The position numbers and the translations under genes are program-made. Below, piece after piece: positions 35,817-59,961 of a stretch of DNA of 64,000 nt (position 1 is the stretch's first letter; the number at the start of each line of letters is the position of its first letter). The notes under the pieces are model-generated. The model saw only the letters and a program-made list of their open reading frames with translations, was not told the DNA's origin and searched no databases. This DNA is from Alphaproteobacteria bacterium (lineage in GTDB: Bacteria; Pseudomonadota; Alphaproteobacteria; UBA6615): contig JAJFJA010000059.1 of NCBI GenBank assembly GCA_021774445.1, positions 155,830 to 219,829 on the forward strand, in the 5' to 3' direction.

Positions 35817-35830
35817 TTCTGCCGCTCCTG

Positions 35831-39322: not shown

Positions 39323-39373
39323 GGCTTCCTCCGAGGGTCACGTTTCGACTTCCGACGACGGCAACACCATCAA

Positions 39374-39715: not shown

Positions 39716-39750
39716 CTGAAACTCCTTAGTGAACCGCGATCGCCTGGGCA

Positions 39751-40411: not shown

Positions 40412-40460
40412 CCCAGGTTCCTGCGTTTCAGCTTAGGTGGCCGCTGGCCACGCCGGTCAC

Positions 40461-40994: not shown

Positions 40995-41165
40995 CGTGAT
41001 GCCTTTATGTCTGGTGTTTTCGAACACCCTCAATGTAGTAGGGCCGTGTCACGAGACGACCACCGGCGGGCGCCGTTTGGTAACGGACTGTCACAAGCCC
41101 GGGTCGAGTTATGGTCCGTTACAAATTTCTTCGCGGTCGTGGCGATGACGGGGTATTTTGCCTCC

Positions 41166-43269: not shown

Positions 43270-43277
43270 AGTTGCGA

Positions 43278-44195
43278 CTACATGACAAAAGCCGCATCGA
43301 CGATCAGCGCGACAAAAACCCCCATCAGGTACAGGATCGAAAATCCGAAGGCGCGTTTGGCCCGGGCGTCATCGGGATTGCGCCACAGGTCAACCGCTAC
43401 GCCCAGATAGGCCAGGGCCAGCAGCAGGGCCATGGCGCCATAGCCGATCCCGGCGATCCCGACGATGACCGGCAAAACGGACAGCGGCACCAGGGCCGCG
43501 GCGTAGACGACCATCCGTCTGATTGTCGCTGCCCGGCCGGCGACGGCGGGCATCATCGGAATCCCCGCCCGCACATAGTCGTCGTTGCGATACAGCGCCA
43601 GTGCCCAGAAATGTGGCGGGGTCCAGAAGAAGATGATCAAGAACAGGCTGAACGAAGCGATGCTGACATCGCCGGTCACCGCGGCCCAGCCGATCATCGG
43701 CGGCAACGCCCCGGCTGCCCCGCCGACGACGATGTTCTGCGGTGTCCGGCGCTTGAGCCAGACCGTGTAGACCAGGATGTAGAAGGCGATCGTCAGCGCC
43801 AGCAACCCTGCCGCCACCCAGTTCACGACCAAACCCATGACCGAGACGGATATCGCCGACAGCGCCAAACCGACCGCGAGCGCTGCCCTCGGCGACACCA
43901 ATCCCGCCGGGATCGGCCGCCGACTGGTTCGTCCCATGATCGCGTCGATGTCGCGGTCATACCACATGTTGAGGGCACCGGCGCCGCCGGCGCCCGCCGC
44001 GATACAAAGGATCGCGACAACCATCAAACCGCCATCGAGCGATCCGGGCGCGATCGCCATGCCGACAAAGCCGGTAAAAATTACCAGCGACATGACCCGC
44101 GGTTTCAGCAACGCCCACACGCCCCACACCGTTTCCCTGGCGGCGGACCGCGTAAGACCGGTGCCTGTCGAAAGACCAGGGGCGATTTCTGTCAT
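43278..44195 (-). CDS. ctaB: protoheme IX farnesyltransferase (heme O synthase)
   Basis: UbiA-family polytopic protein with CtaB/CyoE signature (NMWYDRDIDAIMGRTSRRPIPAG). Confidence 0.85.
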   Translation of the reverse strand: MTEIAPGLSTGTGLTRSAARETVWGVWALLKPRVMSLVIFTGFVGMAIAPGSLDGGLMVVAILCIAAGAGGAGALNMWYDRDIDAIMGRTSRRPIPAGLVSPRAALAVGLALSAISVSVMGLVVNWVAAGLLALTIAFYILVYTVWLKRRTPQNIVVGGAAGALPPMIGWAAVTGDVSIASFSLFLIIFFWTPPHFWALALYRNDDYVRAGIPMMPAVAGRAATIRRMVVYAAALVPLSVLPVIVGIAGIGYGAMALLLALAYLGVAVDLWRNPDDARAKRAFGFSILYLMGVFVALIVDAAFVM

Positions 44196-44254
44196 GATGC
44201 TGATGGGCTCGATCTAGTTTTTTCAATGATCTCGGGTCGCAAGGGCCAACGCAG

Positions 44255-45376
44255 TTACATCTGCATGTCGCCCATTTCCATGCCCTCGGTCATCATCACG
44301 CCCATCATGCCGAGCTGCATATGGAACGGGAACATGCACATGAACATCCACAGACCGGGCTGCTCGATCTTCAGCACCGTTTCGAAGCTGTCGCCCGGCA
44401 TCACCAATGGATTCTCGAAAATCGCCTCATGTTCGGTCAGGTTCCAATCGGCCCGCTGGATGCGATAGCCGACGGACGCCATGCCCGGCCCGGTCATCAG
44501 CATGAATTCGTGCGGTATGTTGCCCCCGTTGGTAATGACGAACCGAATGACCTCGCCCGGCTCCACCATGATGGAACTGGGGCTGTAGCCCCATTCGGTC
44601 ATTTTCACTTCGATTGTCCGGGCGGCCGGCATTGCGGCCCCGGCGGCGACAAGCTCGATTCCGCCACCGCCTTCATGGCCTCCCTCGGCTGCCTCCGCCG
44701 CCTCCGCATGGTCCCCGCCGGCCGCTGTGTCGGCCATGTCCATCCCCGGCATTTGCGCGGCCGGCTGTTCGCCCGGCTGGTCCATCGCCATGGCCGGCGC
44801 CGCATCGGCTTCGGCAGCTTCCATTTGCCCCGATGTGGAGTCGCCCGCCACGCCCTCTGCCATTTGCATGACTTGGCCCGTCGCCGGACTATCCGAAGCC
44901 CCCGCCGCATCCTTGGCGGTCTCCATGACCATGCCCGGCATGGCTTGATCGTCGGTTGCTTCGGCGCTGCCCGCCTCCATCTGCATTGGCGCCGCCGCAT
45001 CGGTCGTGGCTGCTTCGTCCGCCATTTGCATGACTTGCGGTTCGTCCGGCTGGTCCATCGCCATGCCTTCCATCGCGTCGCCCGCGTCGCCGCTTGGCTC
45101 GGCGGCGCCCATCGTCATGCCGGGCATCGCGGTCATTTGTGCCGCCAGTTCTTCGGCCAGATGCTCGGCGTCCGTCGCCGGCAGCTCGAAGACGTCGTGG
45201 CCGATCTCGGTCGACAGTTTCCAGGCCTCTGCCGCCGGCATCAGCCCGGCTTGCCGGTAGCGGTCGATGGGCGTCTGCGCAGCCACCTGCGATGTCGGTA
45301 GCGGGGCCACGACGGTGAAATACCAGGCAACGCCAATGACCAGAATTCCGACAACCAACCACGCACGAACAACCAT
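44255..45376 (-). CDS. membrane-tethered azurin-like type-1 copper (cupredoxin) protein with about 220-aa Met/Ala/Asp/Glu-rich repeat region
   Basis: N-terminal TM (VVRAWLVVGILVIGVAWYF), two about 80-aa repeats rich in M-x-M/QM motifs, C-terminal cupredoxin with azurin-like ligand spacing (PHEF ... CMFPFHMQLGMM). Confidence 0.6.
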   Translation of the reverse strand: MVVRAWLVVGILVIGVAWYFTVVAPLPTSQVAAQTPIDRYRQAGLMPAAEAWKLSTEIGHDVFELPATDAEHLAEELAAQMTAMPGMTMGAAEPSGDAGDAMEGMAMDQPDEPQVMQMADEAATTDAAAPMQMEAGSAEATDDQAMPGMVMETAKDAAGASDSPATGQVMQMAEGVAGDSTSGQMEAAEADAAPAMAMDQPGEQPAAQMPGMDMADTAAGGDHAEAAEAAEGGHEGGGGIELVAAGAAMPAARTIEVKMTEWGYSPSSIMVEPGEVIRFVITNGGNIPHEFMLMTGPGMASVGYRIQRADWNLTEHEAIFENPLVMPGDSFETVLKIEQPGLWMFMCMFPFHMQLGMMGVMMTEGMEMGDMQM

Positions 45377-45395
45377 CCTTTCAGCCTCCCGATGT

Positions 45396-46973
45396 TTATT
45401 CCGCAGGTGCCGGCGTACCGGCGGGCACGGCGATATCGTCGCCCAGCTCCCACGGGTCGCCGCTGCATTCCCTGCCATGGCGCACGGTCAGCGCCAGATT
45501 GACCACGAAAACGAGGAATCCGAGGCCAATCAGATTGGCCGCAATGGTCAACACCATCTGCGGCGTCGCCCACTCGGTTAGCGGCAGGTAGTCGACGACC
45601 CATCGCGGGAAGAACACCAGACCCAGCAGGAACATCATCGTGACCTTGCCGAAGATGCCGATCTGCCAAAGCCAGAAATGCGCGTTGGCGAGGGTCTGGT
45701 TGTAATGGCGCCCGGTGATGTAGGGGTAGACGAAGTAGATGCCGGCGATCGCCATCTGCGCGCAAAAACCCAGGAACATCGCGTGGAAATGCGCCGGTAT
45801 CCAATAGGTGTTATGGATGAAATCGGTATCGATCGAGATTTGCGCATTAATGAACGCCGTTACCCCGCCATAGATCACGAAGAAGATCGCGCCGATCGCG
45901 AATTTGAACGGCACCGCCCGCCGCGCCGAGTCCGGGATGCGCCCCTGCCACAGCGAGGCGATCCAGTTGAACACATGCAGGGTGCTGGGAATGAAAATAA
46001 GCAGCGTGAGAATCTGAAACGCCCGCTGCACCCAAGTGTGCTCGGTCACGGCCGGCTGGAAGTGGTGATGGAAGACGACGAACGAGAGCAGGAACAGCGA
46101 TGAGAAGGCGATGATCGCCGACACGTGGCTCCACATCGGCCGCCCGAGGAAGCGTGGCAGCAGGCTATATAATATGCCGATCGCCGGGACGAAGGGCAGA
46201 TAGACCGCCGGATGGCCGTAGAACCAGAACATCCACAGGAATGTCTTCGTACTGCCCCCGGCGGCGGGATCGAACATCGCCGTCGCGCCGAGCCAATCCG
46301 TCAGCAACAGCGTGCCGACCAGGCTGAGGGCCGGGGTCGATATGACCAGCATGGCGCCCACCGTCAGCATCGCCCAGCCCATCAGCGGCATCGTCATCAG
46401 ACCGCCGCGCCAAGCCAGGGCGTTGCGGATCAGCATCACGCCGGCGAGGAATTCCGAGATGCCGACCAGGACGATCGCCAGATATCCCAGCCACACCAAA
46501 TCGCCGCCGACCCTTAGGCTCATCGGCGTATAGAACGTCCAGGTGAAGTCCGGCCGCCCGACGAGCAGCAATACCGCCGCCAGCGCCAGCAGCCAGTAGC
46601 TCCACTGCGCTAGCCCCGACCACAGCAGACCGTCCAGCTTCAGCAATTTCGGCATCAGGAAATAGCAGACCGACAGCGTCAGCGGGATCACGAAGCCGAA
46701 CACCATCAGCATGCCGTGCAGGGTCAGCAAGGTGATGTAGACCCGCGCCCCGAAATACTGAATGCCGGGAACCGCCAGTTCGGTCCGGAAGGTCAGCGCG
46801 AACAGCCCGGCCAGCCCCAGCATCACCAGCGAGGTGAGAATTCCCTTGATGGCGATGACTTGGTAGTCGTTCGAGAACAGCAGCTCCTTCAGCGTAAGCG
46901 TACCGAGCAGGTTTCTCGGCTGCCAATGAAGGGTTCTCGTCTCGGCAATCTCGTCTGCGGTCGGAAGCGCCAT
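45396..46973 (-). CDS. heme-copper oxidase subunit I, B-family (ba3-like)
   Basis: WFYGHPAVY, FHHHF, HNTYWIPAHFH motifs matching B-type subunit I; 12 or more TM. Confidence 0.8.
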   Translation of the reverse strand: MALPTADEIAETRTLHWQPRNLLGTLTLKELLFSNDYQVIAIKGILTSLVMLGLAGLFALTFRTELAVPGIQYFGARVYITLLTLHGMLMVFGFVIPLTLSVCYFLMPKLLKLDGLLWSGLAQWSYWLLALAAVLLLVGRPDFTWTFYTPMSLRVGGDLVWLGYLAIVLVGISEFLAGVMLIRNALAWRGGLMTMPLMGWAMLTVGAMLVISTPALSLVGTLLLTDWLGATAMFDPAAGGSTKTFLWMFWFYGHPAVYLPFVPAIGILYSLLPRFLGRPMWSHVSAIIAFSSLFLLSFVVFHHHFQPAVTEHTWVQRAFQILTLLIFIPSTLHVFNWIASLWQGRIPDSARRAVPFKFAIGAIFFVIYGGVTAFINAQISIDTDFIHNTYWIPAHFHAMFLGFCAQMAIAGIYFVYPYITGRHYNQTLANAHFWLWQIGIFGKVTMMFLLGLVFFPRWVVDYLPLTEWATPQMVLTIAANLIGLGFLVFVVNLALTVRHGRECSGDPWELGDDIAVPAGTPAPAE

Positions 46974-47013
46974 CGGTACCCCGTTCGTCTGCGAAGTTTG
47001 GTCTAAATGTCCG

Positions 47014-47616
47014 TCAGGACTCTGTCGGCGCGCCGTCGACCACCAGCCATGCCTTCATCTGCGAATGTCCGACGCCGCAATAATTGAGGCATTGGATCAA
47101 GTACTTGCCCGGCGTGTCCGGCGAGCGGATCCAGATGTGGCGGACGGCGCCGGGCTCGAACTCGGTCGTCATGCGGGCGGCGGGTATATTGAAGCCGTGC
47201 ACCACATCGTTCGACATGATCGTGAACAGCACCTTTTGACCCGGCGCTACTTTGACGGCGTTGCGGCTGGCCGCGCCGTTTTCGTCGACGAAGGCAAAAC
47301 CCCACTGAAAGGCGAAGACCCGGACCGTCCTGTCGAAGGCATCCTGGTCCTGTCCGGTGTCGGGGACCCCCGCGAGCGAGTCGCCTCTCGGCAGGTCCTT
47401 CTCATAGGCCGTAAAGGCGGCGGTGCTGCGCGCATCGGCAAATACCGCGAGCACCACGAGAAGCGCCGCGAAAAAGACTTCGATCCGGTAATGGAGTTGC
47501 CAGCGCCGTGGCCATAACAACGCCATGAACAAGGCCACGATCCCGGCACTCCCCAAGGCGATGATGATCGCAAACATCACGGCCTGATCGGCCATCAAGC
47601 CGAGCGCATTGAGCAT
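47014..47616 (-). CDS. heme-copper oxidase subunit II (short, B-family-like) with CuA site
   Basis: CuA ligands HGFNIP ... CLNYCGVGHSQM; two N-terminal TM. Confidence 0.75.
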   Translation of the reverse strand: MLNALGLMADQAVMFAIIIALGSAGIVALFMALLWPRRWQLHYRIEVFFAALLVVLAVFADARSTAAFTAYEKDLPRGDSLAGVPDTGQDQDAFDRTVRVFAFQWGFAFVDENGAASRNAVKVAPGQKVLFTIMSNDVVHGFNIPAARMTTEFEPGAVRHIWIRSPDTPGKYLIQCLNYCGVGHSQMKAWLVVDGAPTES

Positions 47617-47776
47617 CGTTTTGCTTCTTGCCAGTTTCCTCTGCCGGCGAGTCTATCGTGCTTCGAACCGGCAACAAATCGGCCGCCTGGCCGACACCGG
47701 TGTCGGCCGTTTGGGGGACACGATGCCACCATCCGGACGATTAGCGCGGTCGGACCCATGCTGCTAGACTGCGGCC

Positions 47777-49528
47777 ATGGATATCGTGGGCAATAAGCTC
47801 CACCGGCGCATTTCGGCGTTACGCACGCCGGTGGCGATCGCCATGATGGTGGTCGTCGCGACCCACCACATCGTCATCCAACGGGCCGTCCCGGGCTGGC
47901 ATTTGCCGACCGAGATCCTGGTTTATGGCATCGCCGGTCCGATCATCGCCTGGGTCTTGCTGGGCTGGCTCGCGCGCAGCGTCGAATCCGCCGAAACGGC
48001 CAGCGACGCCCTGGCCGAAAGCGTCGCCGACCTGGCCCGCCGCAATACCGAAATCGAGGCCCTCTACAATGCCAGCCGGCTGCTGACCGGGGCCCGGTCC
48101 TTGTCGAACATCGCCGGCTCACTGCTGCAACTGGCGATGCAGATCACCAGGGCGAAATCAGGGGCGCTGGTACTTTTCGATGCCGACGACCAGAGCGGTC
48201 CGATTGCGCCGGCCGCCGGCGATGCCGGAAACCATTTGCGCCGCGACCTGCTGGCCCATGTTGAGGCCGGCCCATGCCTAACCTGCCCCGAGCGCGCCCG
48301 CTGCCCACTTCCCGAGGGCGTGCGCTGCATGCCGATCGTGGCCGGCCGCCATGTCCTCGGCATCCTACGCTTGCAGGAGCCGGCGTGGCACCCCGAACCG
48401 CGGCGCAGCCTCGATGCACTGCTGAGTGAGATCGCCGCGGTTTGGATGGCCAGGCAAGCCGAAAGCCGCGCCTTCACCGCGTTCAGCAAGGTCGGCCAGG
48501 AGCTGCGCGGCGAGGCTGACGTCGGTCGCGTTCTGACCCGTTTCGCCGAGCTTATTTGTGACGCCAGCGGTGCCACGGCTGTCCGCTTGTTTCGTCGCCG
48601 GCACAGCGACTGGACCCTCCGGGCATCGAGCCGGTCCGAGCTGCCGCCGCCGCTGCCCCAATCCCTGCCCCAGGGAACCGACGCCGTGTGGCAGGAAAGC
48701 AAAGGGCGGTTCGTTTACGTCCTGGTCGATGGAGACTGCCTCCTGGCGCTTGATTTCGCCGGCGTTCGGCCGCTTAACCAGCGCGATGGCGCCTTGCTCA
48801 AGTCCCTGGCCCAGCAGGGCAACGCTTTGGCCACGATAACGGAGCGGATGTCCGAGATAATCTGGAATGAACGACAACGGACGGCTCAGGAGCTGCACGA
48901 CGGGCTTGCCCAGAACTTGGCTTTCCTCAACTTGCAGATTCGCCGCCTGGCGGAAATGCTTGACCCGCACATGCCTGCCGACATGCGCGGCGATTTCGAC
49001 AAATTGTCCGAGGCGGCCCTCGATACTTATGACGAACTACGCATGACCATCGGCGACCTACGGCTGCATCCCGGCGACGGCGAGAATCCCGTCGGTTTTT
49101 TGCGTCGCGTCGTCACCGCTTTCGCGCGCCGCCAGAACGTTGCCGCCAATATCGAGGCGTCGGCAGATCTCTCCCTCACGGAAGAGGTTCTTGCCCACCT
49201 CACGCGCCTGGTGCAGGAGGCTTTGAGCAATGCCGTCCGCCACGGCGCGGCGACGCGCGTCGACATCGTCCTCACGCGCGCCGACCAGGGCACCGCGCTG
49301 CATATGTCGATCAGAGATAACGGCACCGGTTTCGACGCCAAGGACACGCCGGCGACCGAGGGACATTACGGCCTCAAGACAATGCGCGAGCGGGTCGCCA
49401 GCATGTCAGGCAGCGTTCGGTTCGAGAGTCGGTTGGGGCAGGGGACGACCGTTCACGTCCGTCTGCCGGGTGTCGTCGCCGGCCCGGCCCGGCCCGATTT
49501 GGCCCCGGCGCCGCTGGGCGCAAAATGA
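47777..49528 (+). CDS. NarL/LuxR-type sensor histidine kinase (HisKA_3) with TM, GAF-like regions and a four-Cys cluster
   Basis: H-box ERQRTAQELHDGLAQNL, HATPase_c (RDNGTGFD, GHYGLKTMRERV), Cys cluster CLTCPERARCPLPEGVRC. Confidence 0.75.
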   Translation: MDIVGNKLHRRISALRTPVAIAMMVVVATHHIVIQRAVPGWHLPTEILVYGIAGPIIAWVLLGWLARSVESAETASDALAESVADLARRNTEIEALYNASRLLTGARSLSNIAGSLLQLAMQITRAKSGALVLFDADDQSGPIAPAAGDAGNHLRRDLLAHVEAGPCLTCPERARCPLPEGVRCMPIVAGRHVLGILRLQEPAWHPEPRRSLDALLSEIAAVWMARQAESRAFTAFSKVGQELRGEADVGRVLTRFAELICDASGATAVRLFRRRHSDWTLRASSRSELPPPLPQSLPQGTDAVWQESKGRFVYVLVDGDCLLALDFAGVRPLNQRDGALLKSLAQQGNALATITERMSEIIWNERQRTAQELHDGLAQNLAFLNLQIRRLAEMLDPHMPADMRGDFDKLSEAALDTYDELRMTIGDLRLHPGDGENPVGFLRRVVTAFARRQNVAANIEASADLSLTEEVLAHLTRLVQEALSNAVRHGAATRVDIVLTRADQGTALHMSIRDNGTGFDAKDTPATEGHYGLKTMRERVASMSGSVRFESRLGQGTTVHVRLPGVVAGPARPDLAPAPLGAK

Positions 49529-50154
49529 CCACCGCAATCGTCGCCGACGACCACAGCCTGTTTCGCCAGGGTGTTTGCCAAACCCTCACCGGCGCCGGCA
49601 TCGACGTGATCGGACAGGCCGATAACGGTGCCGGCGTCGTCGCCCTGGCGCAAGATCTGCGACCCGACGTCGTCGTCATGGATTTGCACATGCCCGGTGG
49701 TGGCGGGGTCGCCGCAACCCGGGCGCTTGCCGCCGACACGAATATTCTGGTCCTCACGGTCTCGGACGAAGACGAGGACCTTTTTGCCGCGCTGGAAGCC
49801 GGGGCGCTCGGTTACTTGCTCAAGGATGCGAAGCCGGCCGCCCTGGTCCGGGCGGTTGAAAGCATCGCCGAGGGCAACAGCGTGCTCTCGCCACAAATAT
49901 CCCGGCGGGTCTTCGGCGCGGTCCGTCGCCCAAACAAGGGCTTGCAGAAACTGAGTGATCGCGAGCGCGATGTCCTCGACCTCATCGCCCGGGGCCTATC
50001 GAACGGTGCCATCGCCCGCCGGCTGAAGATCTCGGAGCACACGGTCAAGACCTACAATGAGCGCTTGTATGAGAAGCTCGGCGTATCCTCGCGCAGCGAG
50101 GCCGCCGTCTACGGCGCGAGCCTTTCCCGCCGCCATGAAAAAGGCCGATCCTAG
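49525..50154 (+). CDS. LuxR/NarL-family response regulator
   Basis: receiver (IVADDHSLFRQG...VVVMDLHMPGGGG) plus LuxR HTH (LSDRERDVLDLIARGLSNGAIARRLKISEHTVKTY); ATGA overlap with kinase. Confidence 0.85.
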   Translation: MTTAIVADDHSLFRQGVCQTLTGAGIDVIGQADNGAGVVALAQDLRPDVVVMDLHMPGGGGVAATRALAADTNILVLTVSDEDEDLFAALEAGALGYLLKDAKPAALVRAVESIAEGNSVLSPQISRRVFGAVRRPNKGLQKLSDRERDVLDLIARGLSNGAIARRLKISEHTVKTYNERLYEKLGVSSRSEAAVYGASLSRRHEKGRS

Positions 50155-50246
50155 CGGCGTATGGTGGTCAGTCCTCTCGCGGACGGGCGTACCCGAGGTC
50201 GCGGTGGCTCGCGCGGCCCATTCCGGGGCCGACAATAATCGCTGAA

Positions 50247-51812
50247 CTACCCCACTAGCCGTTCCAATAGAGGCTCGAGCCGCACCAGGGCATTGGTCGT
50301 CGCGTAGTCGCTGACCGCATAGGGCAGTACCAGCCAGCCATTGTGGATCAGAGAACCGCAACTGTAGACCACATGCGGGACGTAGCCGTCGCGCTCGTGG
50401 TCAAGCGGCTCGAGCAGCGGCCGGCGCAGTCGCCCGATAACCCGTCGCGGATCGTCGCGATCTAGCAGTGCTGCCCCAATACAATAGTTGCGCATGGCGC
50501 CGACACCATGGGTGAGGACAAGCCAGCCGGCTTCGGTTTCCAGCGGCGATCCGCAATTGCCGATCTGAACATACTCCCAGGGTGCCGCGGGCTCCATCAA
50601 GACCTCATGGTCATCCCAGTGATGCAGATCGTCGGAGAACATGAGAGTGATATTGACGCCTCCTTGGCGCCCTAACATGGCGTAGCGGCCGCCGATGCGG
50701 CGGGGAAACAGGGCCATGCCTTTGTTGCGCGCGGCGGCACCGTGCAATGGCCGCAATCTGAATTTCAGAAAATCCTCGGTTTCGATAATCTGCGGCAAAA
50801 TGTTGTCGCCATCGAAAGCAGTGTAGGTGGCGTAGTATCGGTGGCTGCCATCGTCCTCGCGAAAACGCACGAAACGCGCGTCTTCGATGCCTCCCTGCTC
50901 GTTCGACGATGCTGGAAAGAGCACGCGCTCAGACAACGCCAACGAACCGGGAAACTCCACCACGTAGTCGCATTGTGCCGCTTGTCGGATCGCGTGTCCC
51001 AAGGCGTTCTGTTCGTGCTCCCGTTCGAACGCGCTCATGCCGGTCGAATGGGGCCAACGCTCCGGATGGTGCAAAACCACCTCCAGCTCTTCAGGATCGA
51101 ACTCCTCAGCGAGCCCACCCAGCGCGGCGGCAATAAACGGCTTGTCGAATCCCCGCTCCAACAGACTCGCGGCGAAGTCGGCTTTACGATAACGCGGGTA
51201 CCGGATTTCGGCCATCGAGACCGATCCGGAAACGGCGTCGAACACAAGGTCGCCGTCATCGCCGATGACACCGCCACGAAATTCGATCGACGACAGATGG
51301 CCCTCTCCGGTGGCCCGCAGACTCATCACGAATCGCTGCGCGCCTGCCGGGATACCGCTCTGATCCGGGTGCGCGACAATCGAAGGGTTAAACAACGCCG
51401 CCGATTGCAGGCTGTATTCGCTCATGAAGTAGGCGCCAATCAGTTGGGATTGGAGCGGCGAGGGTTTTGTGTCCTCCGGTAGGACATGGCTAAGTTGGCG
51501 GCAGCGGTTCGAGAATACCGTATCAATATCGGTATGCGCATGACTGAAGCGCCGCATGATGTCCCCCAACCTAACCTCTACTTGGGACGGTGACATCGTC
51601 ATAATCCGCCGGATCATATCCCGGGCGCGATCTTCGCCGCCCGGATGAAACGGACGCAGTAACATGCGCGAATTGTCCGGACGCAGATAAACACCAGCCC
51701 GACGGACGGCGAATCTATCGTCGGGCTGGGACACCACTGGAGTGCCGGTGACTTGATCCATATTTTTCTTTTTGCCTACGGGTAATGTGTTTGAGGTTCG
51801 CGTCGACATCAC
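50247..51812 (-). CDS. GH130-family glycoside phosphorylase/hydrolase-like protein with N-terminal extension
   Basis: GH130-type blades (SAALFNPSIV, DARFVRFREDDGSHRYYATYTAFDG, IGNCGSP, HVVYSCGSLIHNGWLVLPYAVSD); exact start uncertain. Confidence 0.6.
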   Translation of the reverse strand: MMSTRTSNTLPVGKKKNMDQVTGTPVVSQPDDRFAVRRAGVYLRPDNSRMLLRPFHPGGEDRARDMIRRIMTMSPSQVEVRLGDIMRRFSHAHTDIDTVFSNRCRQLSHVLPEDTKPSPLQSQLIGAYFMSEYSLQSAALFNPSIVAHPDQSGIPAGAQRFVMSLRATGEGHLSSIEFRGGVIGDDGDLVFDAVSGSVSMAEIRYPRYRKADFAASLLERGFDKPFIAAALGGLAEEFDPEELEVVLHHPERWPHSTGMSAFEREHEQNALGHAIRQAAQCDYVVEFPGSLALSERVLFPASSNEQGGIEDARFVRFREDDGSHRYYATYTAFDGDNILPQIIETEDFLKFRLRPLHGAAARNKGMALFPRRIGGRYAMLGRQGGVNITLMFSDDLHHWDDHEVLMEPAAPWEYVQIGNCGSPLETEAGWLVLTHGVGAMRNYCIGAALLDRDDPRRVIGRLRRPLLEPLDHERDGYVPHVVYSCGSLIHNGWLVLPYAVSDYATTNALVRLEPLLERLVG

Positions 51813-51824
51813 TAGCGCGCCCTC

Positions 51825-54122
51825 TCAGGCAACCGCTACGGCGTCAGGCTCCGCTAAGAGGGCGACGGTCGATATTTCCAGGCTTGTCATTTCTGCCAGT
51901 GCCAGCAGAAAGGCCAATGTGGATTCCGTGCCCTGGTTGAGATTAACACGGTCAAAATGAAGACCGTCATAACAACCACCAGACGATGGATTGTACAGCG
52001 GCTGGTCGAGGTCGTTGCGGCCGAGGAACCACTCAAAGGCACGCCGTGCCTCATCCCGCCAGAACGGATCGCGGGTCGCCTCAAAGGCTGCAATGCAGGC
52101 CGAGACCGTGGCCTGCGCTTCGATGGGTTGCTGGTCGAAACGCGCTCGCACGCCGCCGCGACGATAGAACCCGTTCGACCCAATCGGCGCGAAGACGCCC
52201 TCACGGGTCTGTTCCGCCACTAACCAACGCAGCGTTTGCAGACCGAGCGCCAGGGCTCGCTCCCCATACGCTCCGCCGTGGTGGCCACCGAAGATGAGGG
52301 CGTGCGGTAATTTCGCATTGTCGTAGCTCAACACCGGTTCAAACCACGGCCAATCTGCCTCACTTTGTTGATCATATAGGCGGATTAGCTTCCTGGTTAG
52401 CGCATCGCTGACGGCGCTGACCTTGCGGTCGCCGCCAAGGTGGTTGAGGTATTCCTGTACGCCGATCAGCCCGAATGCCATGGCTCGAGGTGAATTTACG
52501 CCCTCCAATCCCGGCAGGGCTTGCAGAAAGAGCCCAGCCGCCCACGTCTGGAAACTGCGATGCTTAGAACGCCCCAGACACGTGCCTAACACCCAAAGAC
52601 AGCGGCCGAAGCAATCGTCTGAGCCGGGCTCATCGCGCCACTGTCGATCAAAGTTCATAAAGTTTCGGAAGCGCCGATCATTGTCGTCAAAAGCGTACTG
52701 CATAAAGGCCGCATACGTCGTCGCAAGCCGACGGCGAACGAGCGTATCGTGACCGGATGATTCTAGCAAAACCATCAAAAGTAGCGCGCGCGCGTTGTCG
52801 TCAACGCAGTAGCCCTCCGCGAAGTCTGGCATGGCGTAAATCGCATGCTGAAAGATGCCTGTGGAATCCGTGAGACGCTCGACGTGATCCAACGTCAACT
52901 CCGGCAGCTCGATGGATTGTTGGGCTAGCGTCTGAACGACGAACCGGGGACCATGATGATGTCTATGGTCGACTCGCGCTTTTCGGAACGACTCGAAATA
53001 ATGTTTTGCCGTTTCGCTCCAGATCATGGCGCGGCCCAACGCATAAGCCCCTTCAGACATTGCATTTAGCCGCGTTGGGTCTGCCAACAGACCGGTCACT
53101 TCTTTCGCAATAGCCGTACTATCCTTGAACGGCACGAGCACGCCACGCCCCTCGGCCAGTAACTCTTCGGCGTGCCAGTAGGGGGTCGAGATGACCGCTT
53201 TGCCCGAGCCGAACGCATAACACAGGGTACCCGACGTGGCCTGGGCCTCGGCAAGATACGGGGTAATATAGATGTCCGCCGCGCCGATGAATTGCTTGAG
53301 CTCCTCAAGCTCGACGAAGCGGTTGTAAAAAGCGATGTGCTGGCTCACCCCCAGTTTTTCGGCCAAGCGTTCTAGGCTCCGGCGATAACGTTCGCCCTCC
53401 GCGCGCACCAGATTCGGATGGGTCGCGCCGAGCACCATGTAGATCAAGTTTGGATGCCGCCGGACGATCTCGGGCAGCGCACGGATCACGTACTCAATAC
53501 CCTTCCCCGGGGACAACAGTCCGAACGTCAGCAGCACCTCTTTGCCTTCGAGGCCGAACTGATCCTTGAGGGCGTTCGGATTGACGAGGGGCATGTCCGG
53601 AATGCCGTGCGCGATGAGATCAATCTTTTCCGCCGGCGCGCCGTAGGTCTCGCGAAGAATCGCATGTCCGCGCTCGGTCATCACGACCAGCCGTTCCGAT
53701 TGCCTGACGATCTCGTCCATCACCTGCCTTTGGTCGGAATCAGGCTCTCGCAGAATTGTGTGCAAGGTCGTCACCACAGGCAGGTTTACCTCTTGAAGGA
53801 ATGCCAGAATGTGGCCGCCGGAGACGCCGCCATAGATGCCGAACTCGTGCTGCAAGCTGAGCACGTCAAACCCGTTGAACCTAAGAAAGTTCGCCGCCTC
53901 TTGATAATCAAGCAGACGCTGCTCCTGGATTTCGAACCGGACCTCCGGCTCGTAATCATAGCCTTCCGGCAGATCGTTGATCGCCAATACGCCGCACTCG
54001 ATTGTCGGATATTGAGTCGCGACGGCGTGGTGCAGGTCGCGGGTGAAGGTGGCGATGCCGCATTTGCGCGGCAGATAATCGGCAACAAACGCGATCTTTG
54101 ACGGTTGGGTGGTCTCGCTCAT
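51825..54122 (-). CDS. glycosyltransferase family 4 fused to a C-terminal alpha-helical domain of unknown function
   Basis: N-terminal GT4 (GGVSGGH..., E-x7-E region GTLCYAFGSGKAVISTP) then about 380-aa helical domain (ALLLMVLLESSGHD...GGHHGGAYGERALALGLQTLRWL). Confidence 0.65.
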   Translation of the reverse strand: MSETTQPSKIAFVADYLPRKCGIATFTRDLHHAVATQYPTIECGVLAINDLPEGYDYEPEVRFEIQEQRLLDYQEAANFLRFNGFDVLSLQHEFGIYGGVSGGHILAFLQEVNLPVVTTLHTILREPDSDQRQVMDEIVRQSERLVVMTERGHAILRETYGAPAEKIDLIAHGIPDMPLVNPNALKDQFGLEGKEVLLTFGLLSPGKGIEYVIRALPEIVRRHPNLIYMVLGATHPNLVRAEGERYRRSLERLAEKLGVSQHIAFYNRFVELEELKQFIGAADIYITPYLAEAQATSGTLCYAFGSGKAVISTPYWHAEELLAEGRGVLVPFKDSTAIAKEVTGLLADPTRLNAMSEGAYALGRAMIWSETAKHYFESFRKARVDHRHHHGPRFVVQTLAQQSIELPELTLDHVERLTDSTGIFQHAIYAMPDFAEGYCVDDNARALLLMVLLESSGHDTLVRRRLATTYAAFMQYAFDDNDRRFRNFMNFDRQWRDEPGSDDCFGRCLWVLGTCLGRSKHRSFQTWAAGLFLQALPGLEGVNSPRAMAFGLIGVQEYLNHLGGDRKVSAVSDALTRKLIRLYDQQSEADWPWFEPVLSYDNAKLPHALIFGGHHGGAYGERALALGLQTLRWLVAEQTREGVFAPIGSNGFYRRGGVRARFDQQPIEAQATVSACIAAFEATRDPFWRDEARRAFEWFLGRNDLDQPLYNPSSGGCYDGLHFDRVNLNQGTESTLAFLLALAEMTSLEISTVALLAEPDAVAVA

Positions 54123-54155
54123 CGCTAGTAGCCTCGTTCGTGGCGGCGGTCTTGG

Positions 54156-55214
54156 TTAGACTGCCGCGTATTTCTGCTCTTCGAACTCGAAGATCGTTGC
54201 GTAAACTCGCTCATAGGCGGCAACCATAGTGTCTATGGAGAAGCATGCTTCGACGCGGCGGCGGCACGCGTGCCGGTCAATTTCCGAGAGCCGTCCGAGA
54301 GCCTGAACGGCTTGCTCGACGTTGCGGACCAAGAACCCCGTCTGCCCGTCCATGATGACCTCTCGGCAGGAACCAAGATCCATCGCGATGACCGGTATGC
54401 CGGCCGCATTGGCCTCAGCCAGGACCAAGCCGAATCGCTCCGGGATGGTATTCAAATGCAGCAGCGCGCCGGCTGCCGCGAATAGTCGGTTTTTACCCGC
54501 CACATCGACTGGCCCGATATAGTCGATATTTCGACCATCGAGATGCGGCTCGATTTGTTCGCGGTAGTAGGCTTGATCCTGAATGATGCCTGCGATGATC
54601 AATCGCCGGCCGCTCAGGCGAGCGACCTCAATGGCAAGATGAACACCCTTATCCGGGTGGATGCGGCCGAGGAAAACCAGATCATCCCCGGCGCGTTCCT
54701 GGAAAGGATAGAGCGAAAGATCGATCCCGTTGTAGACGGTCGCCAAATAGTTCAGCCCCGGCGCGCGATCGGCGTCGCTGATGGAAACATAATACCCGTC
54801 GCGATACTTTTGATAGACAGGCATGATTTTTGGCGAAGAGAAGCCATGGATGGTGGTCAGAACCGGTGTGCGGATCAGACGACTATAGCTCAAGGCCATG
54901 AAGTCATAGTGGCTGTGAATGAGGTCGAACTCGGCGGCGTGCTCGAAGGCTTCGGCGATGTGAAGGTATTCGGCCACCTTGGGATCGGCCGCGGGATCTT
55001 CTTCATACCCCTTGTCAACGACGGCGTGGAGTTGAGCGTGCGTGATCGAGTCCTTGGTGGCGAAAAGAGTCACGTCCCAGCCGCGCGCAACCAGCCCCTC
55101 GGCAACATTACTGGCCACCGTCTCCCAGGCGCCGTATCGGCGAGGTGGCGTTCGCCACGCAACCGGTGAGAGGACAGCTACTCTCTTGTCGCGCTTGTTC
55201 ATGCGGCTCGGCAT
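54156..55214 (-). CDS. glycosyltransferase family 4
   Basis: GT4 fold sequence (RVAVLSPVAWRTPP...GFSSP..., FGLVLAEANAAGIPVIA). Confidence 0.75.
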   Translation of the reverse strand: MPSRMNKRDKRVAVLSPVAWRTPPRRYGAWETVASNVAEGLVARGWDVTLFATKDSITHAQLHAVVDKGYEEDPAADPKVAEYLHIAEAFEHAAEFDLIHSHYDFMALSYSRLIRTPVLTTIHGFSSPKIMPVYQKYRDGYYVSISDADRAPGLNYLATVYNGIDLSLYPFQERAGDDLVFLGRIHPDKGVHLAIEVARLSGRRLIIAGIIQDQAYYREQIEPHLDGRNIDYIGPVDVAGKNRLFAAAGALLHLNTIPERFGLVLAEANAAGIPVIAMDLGSCREVIMDGQTGFLVRNVEQAVQALGRLSEIDRHACRRRVEACFSIDTMVAAYERVYATIFEFEEQKYAAV

Positions 55215-55292
55215 CGCGGCATCCGCCCCGCGGCCGGCGCTTGATTAGGCGAACATGCCCCGAGGCACCGGTTGGCCGAAGTCAAAGAATAT
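54879..55292. repeat. about 413-bp segment (GT4 5' end plus upstream) duplicated at 57461..57873
   Basis: direct comparison of the two stretches shows about 95% identity by eye over about 410 bp. Confidence 0.8.
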
Positions 55293-55561
55293 CCTCAAAC
55301 GTAAGTCATTTATCGCCGCACACTGCGTTCCCAGGTACGAGGCGATCGCCAGTGGCCCCCAGATCCGCGGGAGGGACGGCGCACTCCCGCATCGCGGCGG
55401 CGCTGGCTCCAGAGGTCTGCCGCCTTCAGGTGTCGCGATAACTCCGGAACTGCGGCGGCGCGCCAACAAAGTGACCCTATAACACTAGAAACGCCAATGA
55501 AACATCTGCGCCTGGCTATGAGCACGCATGCGAGGCAGGGCAGAGCGTGTCCGCTCGGACC

Positions 55562-55684
55562 TCAGCTTCGGATGTCAACTTCCTCGGCAAACGTGAGCGC
55601 ATCGTCGACCTCGACCCCAAGATATCGACCGGCGCTCTCCAGCTTCGTGTGTCCCAGCAATCCGTGATCCGCTTGAGGTCGTTG
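55562..55684 (-). pseudogene. tyrosine recombinase (phage-type integrase) C-terminal remnant
   Basis: minus-strand translation QRPQADHGLLGHTKLESAGRYLGVEVDDALTFAEEVDIRS* carries integrase box II (LGH...RY) but is preceded by an in-frame TGA; only about 40 codons. Confidence 0.5.
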
Positions 55685-55743
55685 TCACCCGACCTGAGTA
55701 CGTAAGGTATAAGACAAATAAAAAACTCTCCACGTCAAACAAA
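55658..55743. repeat. direct repeat copy 1 (about 87 bp) followed by an AT-rich tract
   Basis: caaTCCGTGATCCGCt.g.GGTCGTTG...CGACCT.AGTAC.TAAGGTATA...AAATAAAAAACTCTCC....TCAAACAAA shared with 59626..59712 at about 85% identity. Confidence 0.7.
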
Positions 55744-56083
55744 ACAAGAAAAAGAGATCGCAATATATTTCGTCGTTTATTATCATTGGGATAAGTCAAT
55801 AGTGCAAAATAAGTGATATTTACCATTGTAAATATTTCGATTAGGCCAATATATGTACAGCGGCAAATAATTTCTGCTATGGAGAGAGTGTTTTACATGA
55901 CCGAACCCAAGTTCGGTTGGCGCAGAAGCTATCTTTCCTCAGCTCCGAGCAAAGCCAGCCCTGGCGGCAGGTCCGAAGCTGCCCCGGCGCGCAAGTCGTA
56001 GCAATCGGAACGGAGAGGGCCTGGTCCTTCTCCGTCAACCTTCTCTCGGACGATAGGGCCGCCAACCCGGTGGCCGCCGATGG

Positions 56084-56458
56084 ATGAACGAAAGGAAACA
56101 CGACATGGAAGAGCTCAAGGCCCATTGGGGCCAATACGTCAAAGGCGGCATCGGCGGCGCGATCGTGGTTCTTATCGCCGGCTTCGCTTTCGGACCGCTG
56201 ACGACCAACGGCAATGCCCAACAGCTCGCGGCCACGGCGGTCGCCGACCGAGATGTCGCCTATTGCGTTGCCAATGCAGAGAAACTCGTGAGCTCAGGGA
56301 GGCACGCCGCCCCGTCGAGCAGTACGGAGCGGACCGATCTCGCAAAGGCGGCATACTCTGGCCTCCTACCAGACGCATCGTTCGGCAACGTGGCCTTCAG
56401 GAATTGCTCGCGTGCATTCCCGAAAGACTTCGCCCTCCCCATCTCTGCCGCCCAATAG
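56084..56458 (+). CDS. hypothetical small membrane protein
   Basis: ORF with one TM (GGIGGAIVVLIAGFAFGPL); no recognisable domain. Confidence 0.3.
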   Translation: MNERKHDMEELKAHWGQYVKGGIGGAIVVLIAGFAFGPLTTNGNAQQLAATAVADRDVAYCVANAEKLVSSGRHAAPSSSTERTDLAKAAYSGLLPDASFGNVAFRNCSRAFPKDFALPISAAQ

Positions 56459-56549
56459 TTACGAGGTCAGGGGTCCAGCCGCCAACCGAAAGCTATTGTG
56501 CCTCGTCTGTCGGCTGCGGGCTTACGGGCCGCCAATCAGGGGGCATCTG

Positions 56550-56816
56550 ATGACGATACGCACGACCAAGAAAACAGTGACCTTCAAGCGGCCCTTCGTT
56601 TTGGTTGGGTTCAACGCGTTGCTGCCAGCGGGCGCCTATGTCGTCGAGACGGATGAGGAGCTTCTGGAAGGCATCTCGTTTCCTGCTTATCGGCGGAAAT
56701 TGGACCTGATCCGCCGGCCCGCAAAGTCCGGAAATCCTAAGCGCCGCCATGAGGTCATCGCGCATGCGCTCGGCGATTTCACCCGGCTGTCCGACCATGC
56801 GAACGATTGTTCATGA
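56550..56816 (+). CDS. hypothetical protein
   Basis: ORF beginning MTIRTTKKTVTFKRPFVLVGF; no recognisable domain. Confidence 0.3.
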   Translation: MTIRTTKKTVTFKRPFVLVGFNALLPAGAYVVETDEELLEGISFPAYRRKLDLIRRPAKSGNPKRRHEVIAHALGDFTRLSDHANDCS

Positions 56817-57010
56817 GCATTTCCCGACCGACAAATACGCTCGCCGATCAGCCCACCAGGGTCGCGTCCAAGCTTCGCCAGTGTCTTAGGTGCCAAGCCA
56901 GGTTCCAAAGCGAGTGGGCCGGCGAGCGAATCTGTCCTCGCTGCAAGGGTTCGAATGCATGGCGGAACGGCACGCCGCCTAGGTTCAGTCCTACCGGCAA
57001 TCGACGATAG
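56807..57010 (+). CDS. small zinc-ribbon protein (CxxC-x16-CxxC)
   Basis: CLRCQARFQSEWAGERICPRCK; tiny basic protein. Confidence 0.35.
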   Translation: MFMSISRPTNTLADQPTRVASKLRQCLRCQARFQSEWAGERICPRCKGSNAWRNGTPPRFSPTGNRR

Positions 57011-57089
57011 AGGTCCCCTATTTGCGAGGGCGATCTGAAGTGCGAAGCACGCCCGACGGCGCGCCTCGCGGAAAGGAGTTGGGTTAGCC

Positions 57090-57353
57090 ATGACATTGAA
57101 TTTTCCGAACGGCAGCCGGAGCTACGATGCCGCGAGAGACCGGATTCGCTTTTGGGGGCACGACAGCGCCCTGGAGATTCCGTTTTTCGTGGAGGTGGGC
57201 GCTCTTCAAAAGCTCAATCCGCAGACCGGGAACGTGGAAGCGGCGTATCTCGAGGCGTTTGATGCCGCGCGGGATCTGATCTACGAAACCGCCCGCAAAG
57301 TCTATTCGCGCGCCGGCAAAGGCGTCTACCTCTTGGCAGCGGGGGATTTCTGA
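57090..57353 (+). CDS. DUF1488 family protein
   Basis: MTLNFPNGSRSYDAARDRIRFWGHDSALEIPFFVE matches the DUF1488 N-terminal pattern as I recall it. Confidence 0.55.
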   Translation: MTLNFPNGSRSYDAARDRIRFWGHDSALEIPFFVEVGALQKLNPQTGNVEAAYLEAFDAARDLIYETARKVYSRAGKGVYLLAAGDF

Positions 57354-57439
57354 ACATGCCCCGCCCTATCCGAGCATGTGCCAGTTAGAGTTGGTGCCAC
57401 CGTTTGCAGCCTGTTAACGAGCTCGGTGCCTTTGGCTTT

Positions 57440-57808
57440 TCAGGCCGACCAGGCGGCCGTGCGACTATAGCTCAAGGCCATGAAGTCATAGTGGCTGTGA
57501 ATCAGGTCGAACTCGGCGGCGTGCTCGAAGGCTTCAGCGATGTAAAGATATTCGGCCACCTTGGGATCGGCCGCGGGATCTTCTTCATGCCCCTTGTCAA
57601 CGACGGCGTGGAGTTGAGCGTGCGTGATCGAGTCCTTGGTGGCGAAAAGAGTCACGTCCCAGCCGCGCGCCACCAGCCCCTCGGCAATATTGCTGGCCAC
57701 CGTCTCCCAGGCGCCGTATCGGCGAAGTGGCGTTCGCCACGCAACCGGTGAGAGGACAGCTACTCTCTTGTCGCGCTTGTTCATGCGGCGGGGCCTCGCG
57801 GCATCCAC
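57440..57808 (-). pseudogene. truncated duplicate of the 5' end of the GT4 gene at 54156..55214
   Basis: encodes RMNKRDKRVAVLSPVAWRTPLRRYGAWETVASNIAEGLVARGWDVTLFATKD... nearly identical to the GT4 N-terminus, then diverges and terminates. Confidence 0.7.
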
Positions 57809-58129
57809 CCGGCGACCGGCGCTTGATTAGGCGAACATGCCCTAAGACACCGGTTGGCCGAAGTCAAAGAATACCGGCTATGTCCGCTTTTCGACCTGGA
57901 GGTCCGCTCTACCTCGGACAGCCGACGCCCGCTGGGCGAGGTCGGCCAAGACCGGTTTTAACCCTAAGAAGACTTCGGTGAGCCAACAAGACGGGTAAAT
58001 CCGATGCCGCGGAGTCGGCAGCGTCGATTCGCGTGGCTCTGGACCAGCCAGCACAAAGAATGTTTTGGTACCCATGTGAAAGGGGAGCGGGCAGCGCGTG
58101 CGACCCTCGCTCAACAGGGATCAAACGCA

Positions 58130-59371
58130 ATGGACATCAGTGGGCCGCAACGTGGATTCTTAGGCTGGGTAAACCGTGCACCGGAAGGTTCCGCCGCGGA
58201 CTTGAAGCGCACCTATGGTCTGGCCCGGGTCGGGTTTCCGTTAGGTCTTTTCTCGCATTTCTCTTTCATTTTTCTGTTCTGGTTTCTCGACCTGCCGGTC
58301 ATGGCGCTGTTCAATGTGATTTCCGCGGGCTTTTTGACATGGTGTGTTTGGTCCGCCTGGACGTTGCGCGACCTCAAGCTGGCGACAACTCTAGCGCTTC
58401 TGGTCGAGATCCCCTTGCACGCCATTTTGGCCACCTACTACATGGGCTTTGCACCGTTCTTCGTTGCATTTCTCCTGTTTCCGGTGATGCTGATGCCGTT
58501 GTTACCGTTCTTCGACCGCGGGACCCGCCTCGGTCTCAGCTTCACCTATGCGGCGGTTTTTGTCATCGTCGGCGCGGTCTCCATTGGCGCGGAGCCTGTG
58601 CACCCGCTGTCCACCTCCTGGAACGTTTTCTTTCTAATTTTCAACGCTGTCCCAGTGGTATCCTTCATAGGTATTTTTGCAGCGATCTATGAGACCGCAG
58701 TTACCTCCGCCGAAGAAAAACTGGCGCTCGAATTCGACCGCGCCGAGGGCCTACTGCTCAATATCCTACCCGCTCCCATCGCAGCCCGGCTGAAAGATAA
58801 TCCCGGATTGATCGCCGACGAACATCCGCAGGTGTCGGTCCTGTTCGCCGACATTGTGAACTTCACCGAAACCTCAGACAGGATGGCGCCATCCGACCTT
58901 GTGCAAACACTGAATGCGGCCTTTTCTCGATTTGACGCGCTGGTCGAGAAACATGGGTGTGAGAAGATCAAGACCATCGGCGACGCCTATATGGTCGCAT
59001 CGGGCCTGCCGGAACCGCGCGCTGATCACGCTGATGCCATGGTAGCCCTGGCGCTCGACATGATCGATGTGGCGGATGAGATCAACAGGTCGGGAGAATT
59101 TCCGTTTTCCCTGCGCATCGGGATCAATTCCGGCCCGGTAGTAGCCGGTGTGATCGGCGACCGAAAGTTCGCTTACGACCTCTGGGGTGACACGGTAAAT
59201 GTGGCATCGCGCATGGAGTCCCATGGCCGCCCCGGCCTGATCCAAATTACAGAAACCACGCGCGTCCAACTGGATAATACCGTCCAAGTGGACCCTCTCG
59301 GAAATGTCGACATCAAGGGGAAAGGCAGCATGCCTACCTATGCTGTGGCCGGACGACGGCAGACAGTCTAA
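58130..59371 (+). CDS. membrane-anchored class III adenylate/guanylate cyclase (6-TM plus CHD)
   Basis: six predicted TM helices then cyclase domain (VSVLFADIVNFTE, KIKTIGDAYMVASGLPEP, WGDTVNVASRME); ATG at 58130 inside ORF 58004..59371; lower GC. Confidence 0.8.
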   Translation: MDISGPQRGFLGWVNRAPEGSAADLKRTYGLARVGFPLGLFSHFSFIFLFWFLDLPVMALFNVISAGFLTWCVWSAWTLRDLKLATTLALLVEIPLHAILATYYMGFAPFFVAFLLFPVMLMPLLPFFDRGTRLGLSFTYAAVFVIVGAVSIGAEPVHPLSTSWNVFFLIFNAVPVVSFIGIFAAIYETAVTSAEEKLALEFDRAEGLLLNILPAPIAARLKDNPGLIADEHPQVSVLFADIVNFTETSDRMAPSDLVQTLNAAFSRFDALVEKHGCEKIKTIGDAYMVASGLPEPRADHADAMVALALDMIDVADEINRSGEFPFSLRIGINSGPVVAGVIGDRKFAYDLWGDTVNVASRMESHGRPGLIQITETTRVQLDNTVQVDPLGNVDIKGKGSMPTYAVAGRRQTV

Positions 59372-59625
59372 CAGCGCTGCAGTACTAATGACAAGCATCG
59401 CCGAATCTCGGCTCAGTGACCGCTGTTCGCTACAAGCCGAAGCCCAGAGTAACTGTCCGTTTGGTCCGCTTCTGCCCCGAAGCGGGCATTGGGGGCGAAT
59501 CGCGCTAAACGTCGGCCAACGCCCCCTGCCAATGTTGCGGATTGCGTCTATCCTGACGCTTTGGAACGGGTTAGGCAGGGGCGCTTCTTGCTGTAGGACG
59601 AGGAACGGGGACGTATCGTGCCGTT

Positions 59626-59712
59626 CAAATCCGTGATCCGCTCGCGGTCGTTGCCGAGCGACCTAAGTACTTAAGGTATACTTAAAATAAAAAACTCTCC
59701 GCTTCAAACAAA
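59626..59712. repeat. direct repeat copy 2 (about 87 bp) followed by an AT-rich tract
   Basis: see copy 1 at 55658..55743. Confidence 0.7.
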
Positions 59713-59885
59713 GAAGGAAGTAAATTGGCATTATATTTCGCCTGTTGTTTCGCTTACGGCAAGTCTATAGAAGGAAATAAACGAATTCCGCCGCAAAAAG
59801 AGCGACCATTACGGAAGCAGAACCCATGAAAAAGCCTACTATCATGCGGGTTTCTAGACGCTGTTGGAACTTCTTGGACGGTAAT

Positions 59886-59961
59886 TGGTGGAGCCGAGGG
59901 GAATCGAACCCCTGACCTCGACATTGCGAACGTCGCGCTCTCCCAACTGAGCTACGGCCCC
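59886..59961 (-). tRNA. tRNA-Ala (anticodon CGC)
   Basis: reverse complement GGGGCCGTAGCTCAGTTGGGAGAGCGCGACGTTCGCAATGTCGAGGTCAGGGGTTCGATTCCCCTCGGCTCCACCA; G3:U70 pair, anticodon loop TTCGCAA, encoded CCA. Confidence 0.9.

Follow-up and report, generated by a model that had tools for sequence, protein, structure and literature searches.

The region between a GT4-headed operon and a tRNA-Ala(CGC) gene was analysed in a 64,000-nt stretch of alphaproteobacterial DNA (contig JAJFJA010000059.1, assembly GCA_021774445.1), which is called the window here. A first-pass annotation had described this islet of about 4.6 kb as a decayed integrative element, or two nested insertions, at a tRNA locus. It was found that the islet is probably the tRNA-proximal and most strongly eroded end of a block of accessory DNA of about 26 kb (33748-59885) that adjoins the 3' end of tRNA-Ala(CGC). 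From the earlier description, the accessory or foreign character of the DNA, the recombinase remnant and the mosaic of more than one event were retained, whereas the separate 4.6-kb unit, the att sites and the nesting were abandoned. What remains is a decayed accessory region of an ordinary, tRNA-linked kind, which is larger than had been proposed and of low novelty. All of the sequence features that had been listed for the islet were found, with small shifts of coordinates (Table 1).

The nearest relatives, all of which were metagenome contigs, were identified by a search for FolD homologs; in the two closest loci, L089 and L090, the amino acid identity of FolD was 84% and 79%, respectively. 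A separate FolD scan of genomes returned, among the matches listed, only distant relatives (at most 71%), which were used for synteny alone. In both L089 and L090, tRNA-Ala(CGC) lies on the minus strand and is followed by yggT, folD and argG as in the window; DUF167 is also present in L090 and nnrU in L089. A GST gene is located 232-260 bp beyond the 3' end of the tRNA gene in these loci, and the ortholog of this gene in the window (32999-33747, 83.5% nucleotide identity) lies 26.1 kb from the tRNA gene. Homology to the relatives resumes at window position 59885 for L089 and 59878 for L090; the 3' end of the tRNA gene is at 59886, so that both points differ from it by no more than 8 bp. Considering the position of the GST ortholog and the homology break at the tRNA 3' end, it may be concluded that about 26.1 kb (33748-59885) is extra in the window relative to L089 and L090. 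The empty-site comparison that had been proposed earlier thus revealed a block that L089 and L090 lack between GST and tRNA-Ala; the missing DNA amounts to about 26 kb rather than 4.6 kb. The GT operon, which had been treated as backbone, lies inside this block and is itself a widely transferred 5-kb cassette.

The tRNA-Ala/yggT/DUF167/folD arrangement was also kept in 13 more distant alphaproteobacterial loci, and the content beyond the tRNA was different in each of them. The 3' flank of tRNA-Ala(CGC) beside yggT-DUF167-folD is a variable hot spot in this alphaproteobacterial group. In the three loci that were checked, the first genes beyond tRNA-Ala(CGC) encoded an AAA_21 ATPase with DUF4276, which is defence-like (L046 7102-8948), a reverse transcriptase (L036 6066-7022) and a DDE transposase (L039 5774-7207). 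Therefore, this site collects mobile and defence genes across lineages. Just 3' of tRNA-Ala(CGC), L089 (304-417) and L090 (9020-9075) contain two and one tandem pseudo-copies, respectively, of about 57 bp of the tRNA 3' end (TGGTGGAGCCCCAGGGACAAACATCGAACCGAGGCGA...). These pseudo-copies look like displaced tDNA (tRNA gene) fragments from earlier integration or excision at the same hot spot; none was found in the window. Homologs of two small islet open reading frames (ORFs), hyp89 and the zinc-ribbon ORF, were detected in other loci with 52% (E 2e-16) and 56% (E 3e-14) identity, respectively, the former at L082 5605-5802, about 4 kb upstream of a GT cassette, and the latter at L070 1399-1548, about 4 kb beyond tRNA-Ala. 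Judging from these matches, the small islet genes may travel with the same kinds of islands, or the association may be a coincidence.

The cassette consisting of GT4, a large GT and GH130 occurs elsewhere. Its proteins are 80-90% identical to those encoded in metagenome-assembled genomes labelled Alphaproteobacteria, Thermomicrobiales and Blastocatellia, where the neighbourhoods are unrelated (L081 10001-14970, L082 10001-15062 and L136 521-5525; also L135). Nucleotide identity is 78-84%, and nucleotide homology stops at 50249 and 55259. The second gene elsewhere encodes a GT of about 770 aa, and one database protein (P0103, 612 aa) is a fusion of GT4 to GH130. The GT4-GT-GH130 cassette is a discrete horizontally transferred module, and these data suggest a putative role as a widely exchanged glycan or compatible-solute module.

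The 34-50 kb part of the block encodes a cytochrome c, CBS/BON and beta-propeller proteins, a copper P-type ATPase, two two-component systems, a cupredoxin and COX1/COX2, and its GC content is genome-like (0.62-0.66). In the tRNA-proximal 9.6 kb, the GC content at third codon positions was 0.68-0.73 versus 0.81-0.83 in folD, nnrU and argG. This difference is modest, and GST and yggT are also low; the cargo of the islet, which had been described as lower in GC, is so only mildly. No integrase or transposase domain was detected in the large ORFs of the 33.7-59.9 kb region, and tRNA-Ala had no match longer than 13 nt elsewhere in the 64 kb. An exact 13-nt inverted match to its T-arm region (56462-56474, E 0.11) follows closely on the first small ORF; it cannot be extended and is most likely due to chance. 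The distal copper and respiration cluster occupies 34078-50154 and additionally carries YHS/HMBD on the P-type ATPase and SHOCT; its regulators are an OmpR-type regulator plus kinase and a LuxR-type two-component pair. Between a kinase gene and the cupredoxin gene, a 398-aa ORF without a Pfam family (43272-44468, plus strand) overlaps the 3' end of the cupredoxin gene (44255-45478, minus strand) by about 200 bp on opposite strands, and one of these two gene models is probably wrong.

Two pairs of repeats were characterized in the islet. The duplicated GT4 5' region, which had been reported as 413 bp at about 95% identity, was borne out with slightly moved limits as a direct, ungapped repeat of 412 bp with 18 mismatches (A, 54880-55291, versus A', 57462-57873; 95.6% identity). 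It comprises the first approximately 112 codons of GT4 and 77 bp upstream, the longest exact run common to both copies is 81 bp, and the segment between A and A' measures 2.17 kb. In A', the annotated GT4 ATG is replaced by AGG and Met5 is retained; Met5 is likely the true GT4 start since the homologs are 345-347 aa long. The coding part differs at 12 of 335 positions and the upstream part at 6 of 77, which is not significant at these small counts (p = 0.12 with the annotated start), and synonymous and non-synonymous changes are nearly equal in number (about 5-6 to 4-6, again small counts).

The second pair, R1 and R2, matches at 83.5% identity over an 85-bp core (55659-55743 versus 59628-59712), in agreement with the direct repeats of about 87 bp noted earlier. 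The similarity is in fact longer, extending with decay into the adjacent AT-rich tracts to 154 bp at 73% (55659-55812 versus 59628-59780), and the longest exact blocks are 15-16 nt. Two conserved blocks of R were each found only at R1 and R2 in the window, with 0 occurrences expected from shuffled sequences. The AT-rich tracts, described as striking in the first-pass annotation, proved to be the GC minima of the whole 64 kb: the lowest 150-bp windows, 55708-55857 (0.28) and 59662-59811 (0.367), are followed by one of 0.473, against a mean of 0.63. R2 begins 258 bp and its homology ends 105 bp from the tRNA 3' end.

Other copies of R were sought in several collections. None was found in the metagenome pattern scan or in the first viral scan; the second viral scan yielded 44 chance 15-mers, none of which could be extended past 22 nt. 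When the complete islet was compared with plasmids and phages by sensitive blastn, the matches were confined to the cyclase domain and the integrase tail, and no match to R was found in 218 fetched loci. Over the islet, Rfam at E <= 1 reported only the tRNA. Consensus folds of R1 and R2 are based on two sequences only, so that covariation is uninformative, and no inverted repeats involving the R ends were found in the window. An insertion sequence or miniature inverted-repeat transposable element was considered for R and found no support: there are no terminal inverted repeats, and only two copies exist in the window and none in the metagenome, viral, plasmid and phage collections (the rest of the source genome was not searched). 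It was also rejected that the edge of R2 ('GTTCAAATCC') is a fragment of a tRNA or tmRNA, as its stems are unpaired and ARAGORN and Rfam report nothing there. Most simply, the R/AT modules are homologous non-coding ends or upstream regions of two related insertions.

The recombinase tail lies on the minus strand at 55660->55565 and reads LLGHTKLESAGRYLGVEVDDALTFAEEVDIRS, with a stop at 55564-55562; another in-frame stop is located 8 codons upstream of the tail, within R1. The C-terminal end with box II and the in-frame stop were described correctly before, but the homologous part comprises 32 codons and not about 40. A 40-aa peptide matched the C-termini of PF00589 proteins with the motif HSMRRTKA..NLRAVQLLLGHTKLESTVRYLGVEVDDAL (E 2e-6 among 5.8e9 sequences), and neither the 32-aa nor the 40-aa tail peptide matched a Pfam or NCBIfam model. 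The full PF00589 catalytic set (R-K-H-R-H/W-Y in a domain of about 170 aa) is absent, as only the box II end LLGH...RY is present. At the DNA level, the tail matched the gene for a 206-aa 'tyrosine-type recombinase/integrase' of Agrobacterium plasmid pAtG3_79a (WP_174004126.1). When this 206-aa protein was compared with the window by tblastn, only residues 177-206 aligned (70% identity), and no other recombinase piece, including an N-terminal remnant, was found in the 64 kb. Therefore, about 176 recombinase codons are missing. The break coincides exactly with the left edge of R1, which adjoins the LLGH codon of the tail. Integrases of tRNA islands are usually about 400 aa long and have an arm-binding domain; a source recombinase of about 206 aa is atypical for them. 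Two special cases were rejected. For an SSV-type split integrase, no N-terminal integrase remnant was present beside either R copy or anywhere in the window. As to integrase 'tails' of 51-70 aa in the database forming a systematic class, in the one example that was examined (L083) recognisable upstream integrase sequence was out of frame with the tail, as in a decayed pseudogene; short targets probably rank higher in this kind of search.

Read on the minus strand from the tRNA gene, the order is tRNA, AT2-R2, 256 bp, the cyclase gene (antisense), GT4' upstream region and 112 codons, four small ORFs (antisense), AT1-R1, integrase tail, 270-bp spacer, and finally the GT4 upstream region with the full GT operon. 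Both repeat pairs are direct and in the same order, and they interleave (A, R, A', R'). Therefore, the islet did not arise by nested insertions, as had been suggested as one option. This structure is most likely explained by two related pieces of DNA in tandem, each of which had, when read away from the tRNA, the layout AT-rich tract - R - ... - GT4 upstream - GT4. The tandem units might have come from a second integration or from Campbell-type homologous recombination via the shared GT4 5' region. Subsequently, one deletion would have removed about 176 recombinase codons and joined R1 directly to the LLGH codon (codon 177), a second deletion would have cut the second GT4 copy at codon 112, and the cyclase gene and four small ORFs would be cargo caught in the rearrangements. 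Because A and A' differ by 4.4% and R1 and R2 by 17-27%, two related, separately evolved units are favoured over a single recent duplication in situ, although such small counts do not decide the matter. Without an integrase and an att pair, and with no sign of excision ability, the structure today would be an immobile scar.

Another route to two tandem units would be an in-situ tandem duplication of the segment from the GT4 5' end to R-AT, followed by insertion of the cyclase gene and small ORFs and by deletions, with no second incoming element. Interleaved direct repeats that keep the same order are the natural outcome of a tandem duplication. In addition, the similarity of A to A' extends 32-45 bp into local sequence past the point where the cassette ends in other genomes (55246-55259 versus 55291). 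However, the unequal divergence of the two pairs counts against a single event, at least two later insertions at precise places as well as deletions would be needed, and the ratio of synonymous to non-synonymous changes in A/A' hints that they diverged partly under coding constraint. This route is considered unlikely.

The original proposal is still less probable; it called for a self-contained decayed element of about 4.6 kb, or two insertions one inside the other, at tRNA-Ala, in which the 87-bp repeats would be remnants of attL and attR. In its favour, both repeats were confirmed, have direct orientation and occur nowhere else in the window, R2 lies close to the tRNA 3' end and the recombinase remnant adjoins R1. 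Nevertheless, neither repeat contains tRNA sequence, a fragment of the tRNA is found nowhere else in the window, and the integrase tail (55562-55660) is outside the R1-R2 interval instead of inside it. Instead of a long exact core there are exact blocks of at most 16 nt in repeats that are 73-83% identical overall. The interleaving of A and R is impossible by nesting, and it is 26 kb and not 4.6 kb that is absent from the relatives. The interpretation of the repeats as relic att sites was consequently given up.

It is quite improbable that R and the AT-rich tract form a useful duplicated non-coding module such as a promoter, a silencer-bound regulatory region or a small RNA gene. R contains a GGTCG-N8-CGACC hairpin with a conserved stem and variable loop, the conserved blocks include TATAAT/TATATT on the minus strand, a promoter-like site is located in tract 1 on the minus strand (55808-55779), and R1 precedes two sets of genes, the four-ORF cluster on the plus strand and the GT operon on the minus strand. 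On the other hand, Rfam gave no match to R, the fold comparison has only two members, R2 lacks a downstream gene on the plus strand and on the minus strand is directed towards the 3' end of the cyclase gene, and R had no homolog in any collection searched. Very little credence was given to the idea that R and the AT-rich tract mark the end, or the site of recombination, of a small integrative module not described before, which would be mobilised by the class of tyrosine recombinases of about 200 aa and would insert just downstream of tRNA-Ala without tRNA duplication; if this were true, the R1 edge at the LLGH codon would be the point of a site-specific crossover and not the chance end of a deletion. 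An equally slim chance was assigned to an assembly artefact in which two strain variants were joined via the shared GT4 5' region, so that the duplication is not on one molecule: the nearest relatives are all metagenome contigs and the 81-bp exact run is enough to confuse short-k assembly, but at the left edge of A' (57461/57462) unique sequence passes into the repeat in the middle of a gene, and at least one molecule must carry this junction; the divergence of R1 and R2 is too great for them to have been collapsed or joined, and the rest of the window has no chimeric look.

Several points weigh against the preferred reading of the islet as the eroded end of a 26-kb insertion at the tRNA. The window, L089 and L090 are about equidistant, so that one deletion in an ancestor of L089 and L090, in place of an insertion in the window, might have produced the 26-kb difference, or at least its genome-like 34-50 kb part. 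As no displaced tRNA fragment is present in the window and no integrase in the block, site-specific integration is suggested by position only. With A/A' at 95.6% and R/R' at 73-83%, a single age of duplication requires much faster divergence of non-coding DNA. No element with the organization tRNA-R-full recombinase-GT operon was found in any collection searched (metagenome, viral, plasmid, phage and fetched loci). Finally, an assembly join through the 95.6% repeat would undermine this reading, and it is regarded as very improbable.

It had also been suggested that the duplicated GT4 promoter could now drive the cyclase gene. This was contradicted by the orientation of the genes: the GT4' ORF lies on the minus strand (57808->57440), its duplicated 77-bp upstream region is 57797-57873, and the cyclase gene lies to the right on the plus strand. 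Since the two are divergent, transcription from this region would cover the GT4' fragment and run antisense into DUF1488, not into the cyclase gene. The word promoter was moreover a label and not an observation, as no consensus promoter was predicted in the 77 bp. The cyclase gene has its own upstream region (57874-58129), which is outside the duplication, and it should not be presumed to be driven by the GT4 upstream region. Its start at 58130 is supported by a 68%-identical ortholog in L139; this nearest relative is encoded on a 3-kb contig in another context, without R and without the tRNA. The predicted product scores above the curated cut-off for a class III adenylate/guanylate cyclase catalytic domain (PF00211; 212 bits versus a cut-off of 21.9, residues 272-449 of a 455-aa ORF).

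Most of the remaining gene calls in the islet were sound. tRNA-Ala(CGC) is present at 59886-59961 on the minus strand, and a promoter-like site was predicted next to it at 60046-60017. In Pfam searches, the membrane cyclase (class III, E 5e-63) and DUF1488 (E 3e-16) were solid, and two ORFs, called hypothetical before, indeed match no family. The zinc-ribbon ORF is present, but its family call is weak (E 0.003, under the Pfam cut-off).

The practical consequence of these findings is mainly one of annotation, beyond which they have little importance. The island boundary should be redrawn from 4.6 kb to about 26 kb with the GT operon as transferred cargo, and 55562-55660 and 57462-57796 should be marked as pseudogene fragments.

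Table 1. Features of the accessory region and its borders (window coordinates).
Feature	Coordinates	Strand	Basis or remarks
GST gene, left anchor	32999..33747	-	Pfam GST_N + GST_C; 83.5% nucleotide identity to L090 8095-8843 and L089 1-157
Accessory DNA, about 26.1 kb (probable extent)	33748..59885		Copper/cytochrome-oxidase/two-component cluster, GT cassette and islet
GT4 - 765-aa GT - GH130 cassette, including about 45 bp upstream	50247..55259	-	Pfam; homologous cassettes elsewhere
GT4 gene	54156-55214	-	
Repeat A: 5' 335 bp of GT4 and 77 bp upstream	54880..55291	-	Repeat comparison
Unique spacer from repeat A to recombinase-tail stop, 270 bp	55292..55561		No feature found
Recombinase pseudogene fragment: last 32 codons and stop	55562..55660	-	Translation, homologs
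R1 and AT-rich tract 1	55659..55900	+	Homology to R2 = 55659-55812; GC down to 0.28
hyp124 ORF	56084-56458	+	
hyp89 ORF (89 aa)	56547-56816	+	
Cys4 zinc-ribbon-like ORF	56807-57010	+	
DUF1488 ORF	57090-57353	+	Pfam
Repeat A': truncated GT4 5' fragment (codons 1-112) and 77 bp upstream	57462..57873	-	
Class III adenylate/guanylate cyclase, membrane-anchored, 413 aa	58130..59371	+	PF00211
R2 and AT-rich tract 2, tRNA-proximal accessory terminus	59628..59885	+	Homology to R1 = 59628-59780
tRNA-Ala(CGC)	59886..59961	-	3' end toward accessory DNA

The locus was compared with known systems. By the operational definition that Islander uses (PMC4383910), a tDNA island needs an integrase as well as a regenerated target and a displaced fragment. 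Like the tDNA islands of that collection, which include tandem arrays, the locus has foreign DNA starting from the tRNA 3' end and absent in relatives, accessory genes, AT-rich ends, a tyrosine-recombinase remnant and indications that DNA was acquired at this tRNA more than once (PMC4383910). It differs from them in having no displaced tRNA fragment and no intact integrase, and in internal repeats that are not derived from the tRNA (PMC4383910). Of the features by which Islander recognizes islands, the homology break at the tRNA 3' end and the absence at the same site in relatives were observed, while neither a displaced tRNA fragment in direct orientation (within 64 kb) nor a tyrosine integrase gene of its own was found (PMC4383910). 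Since the Islander filters ask for both the integrase and the tDNA fragment, the locus is at best a degraded island that would not be called.

The 2.17-kb segment between near-identical 412-bp direct repeats resembles the product of Campbell-type single-crossover integration or unequal recombination; no circular donor or second full element was found, however, and the repeats are 4.4% diverged. The remnant resembles the small PF00589 recombinases of about 200 aa, such as that of pAtG3_79a, in its last 30 residues (70% identity) and in LLGH...RY with the catalytic tyrosine, and it differs from them in that 32 of about 206 codons are left, the other catalytic residues and the N-terminal part being gone. 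Decayed copies of this small-recombinase family are common elsewhere, for example in L083, where the remnant is out of frame with its upstream part.

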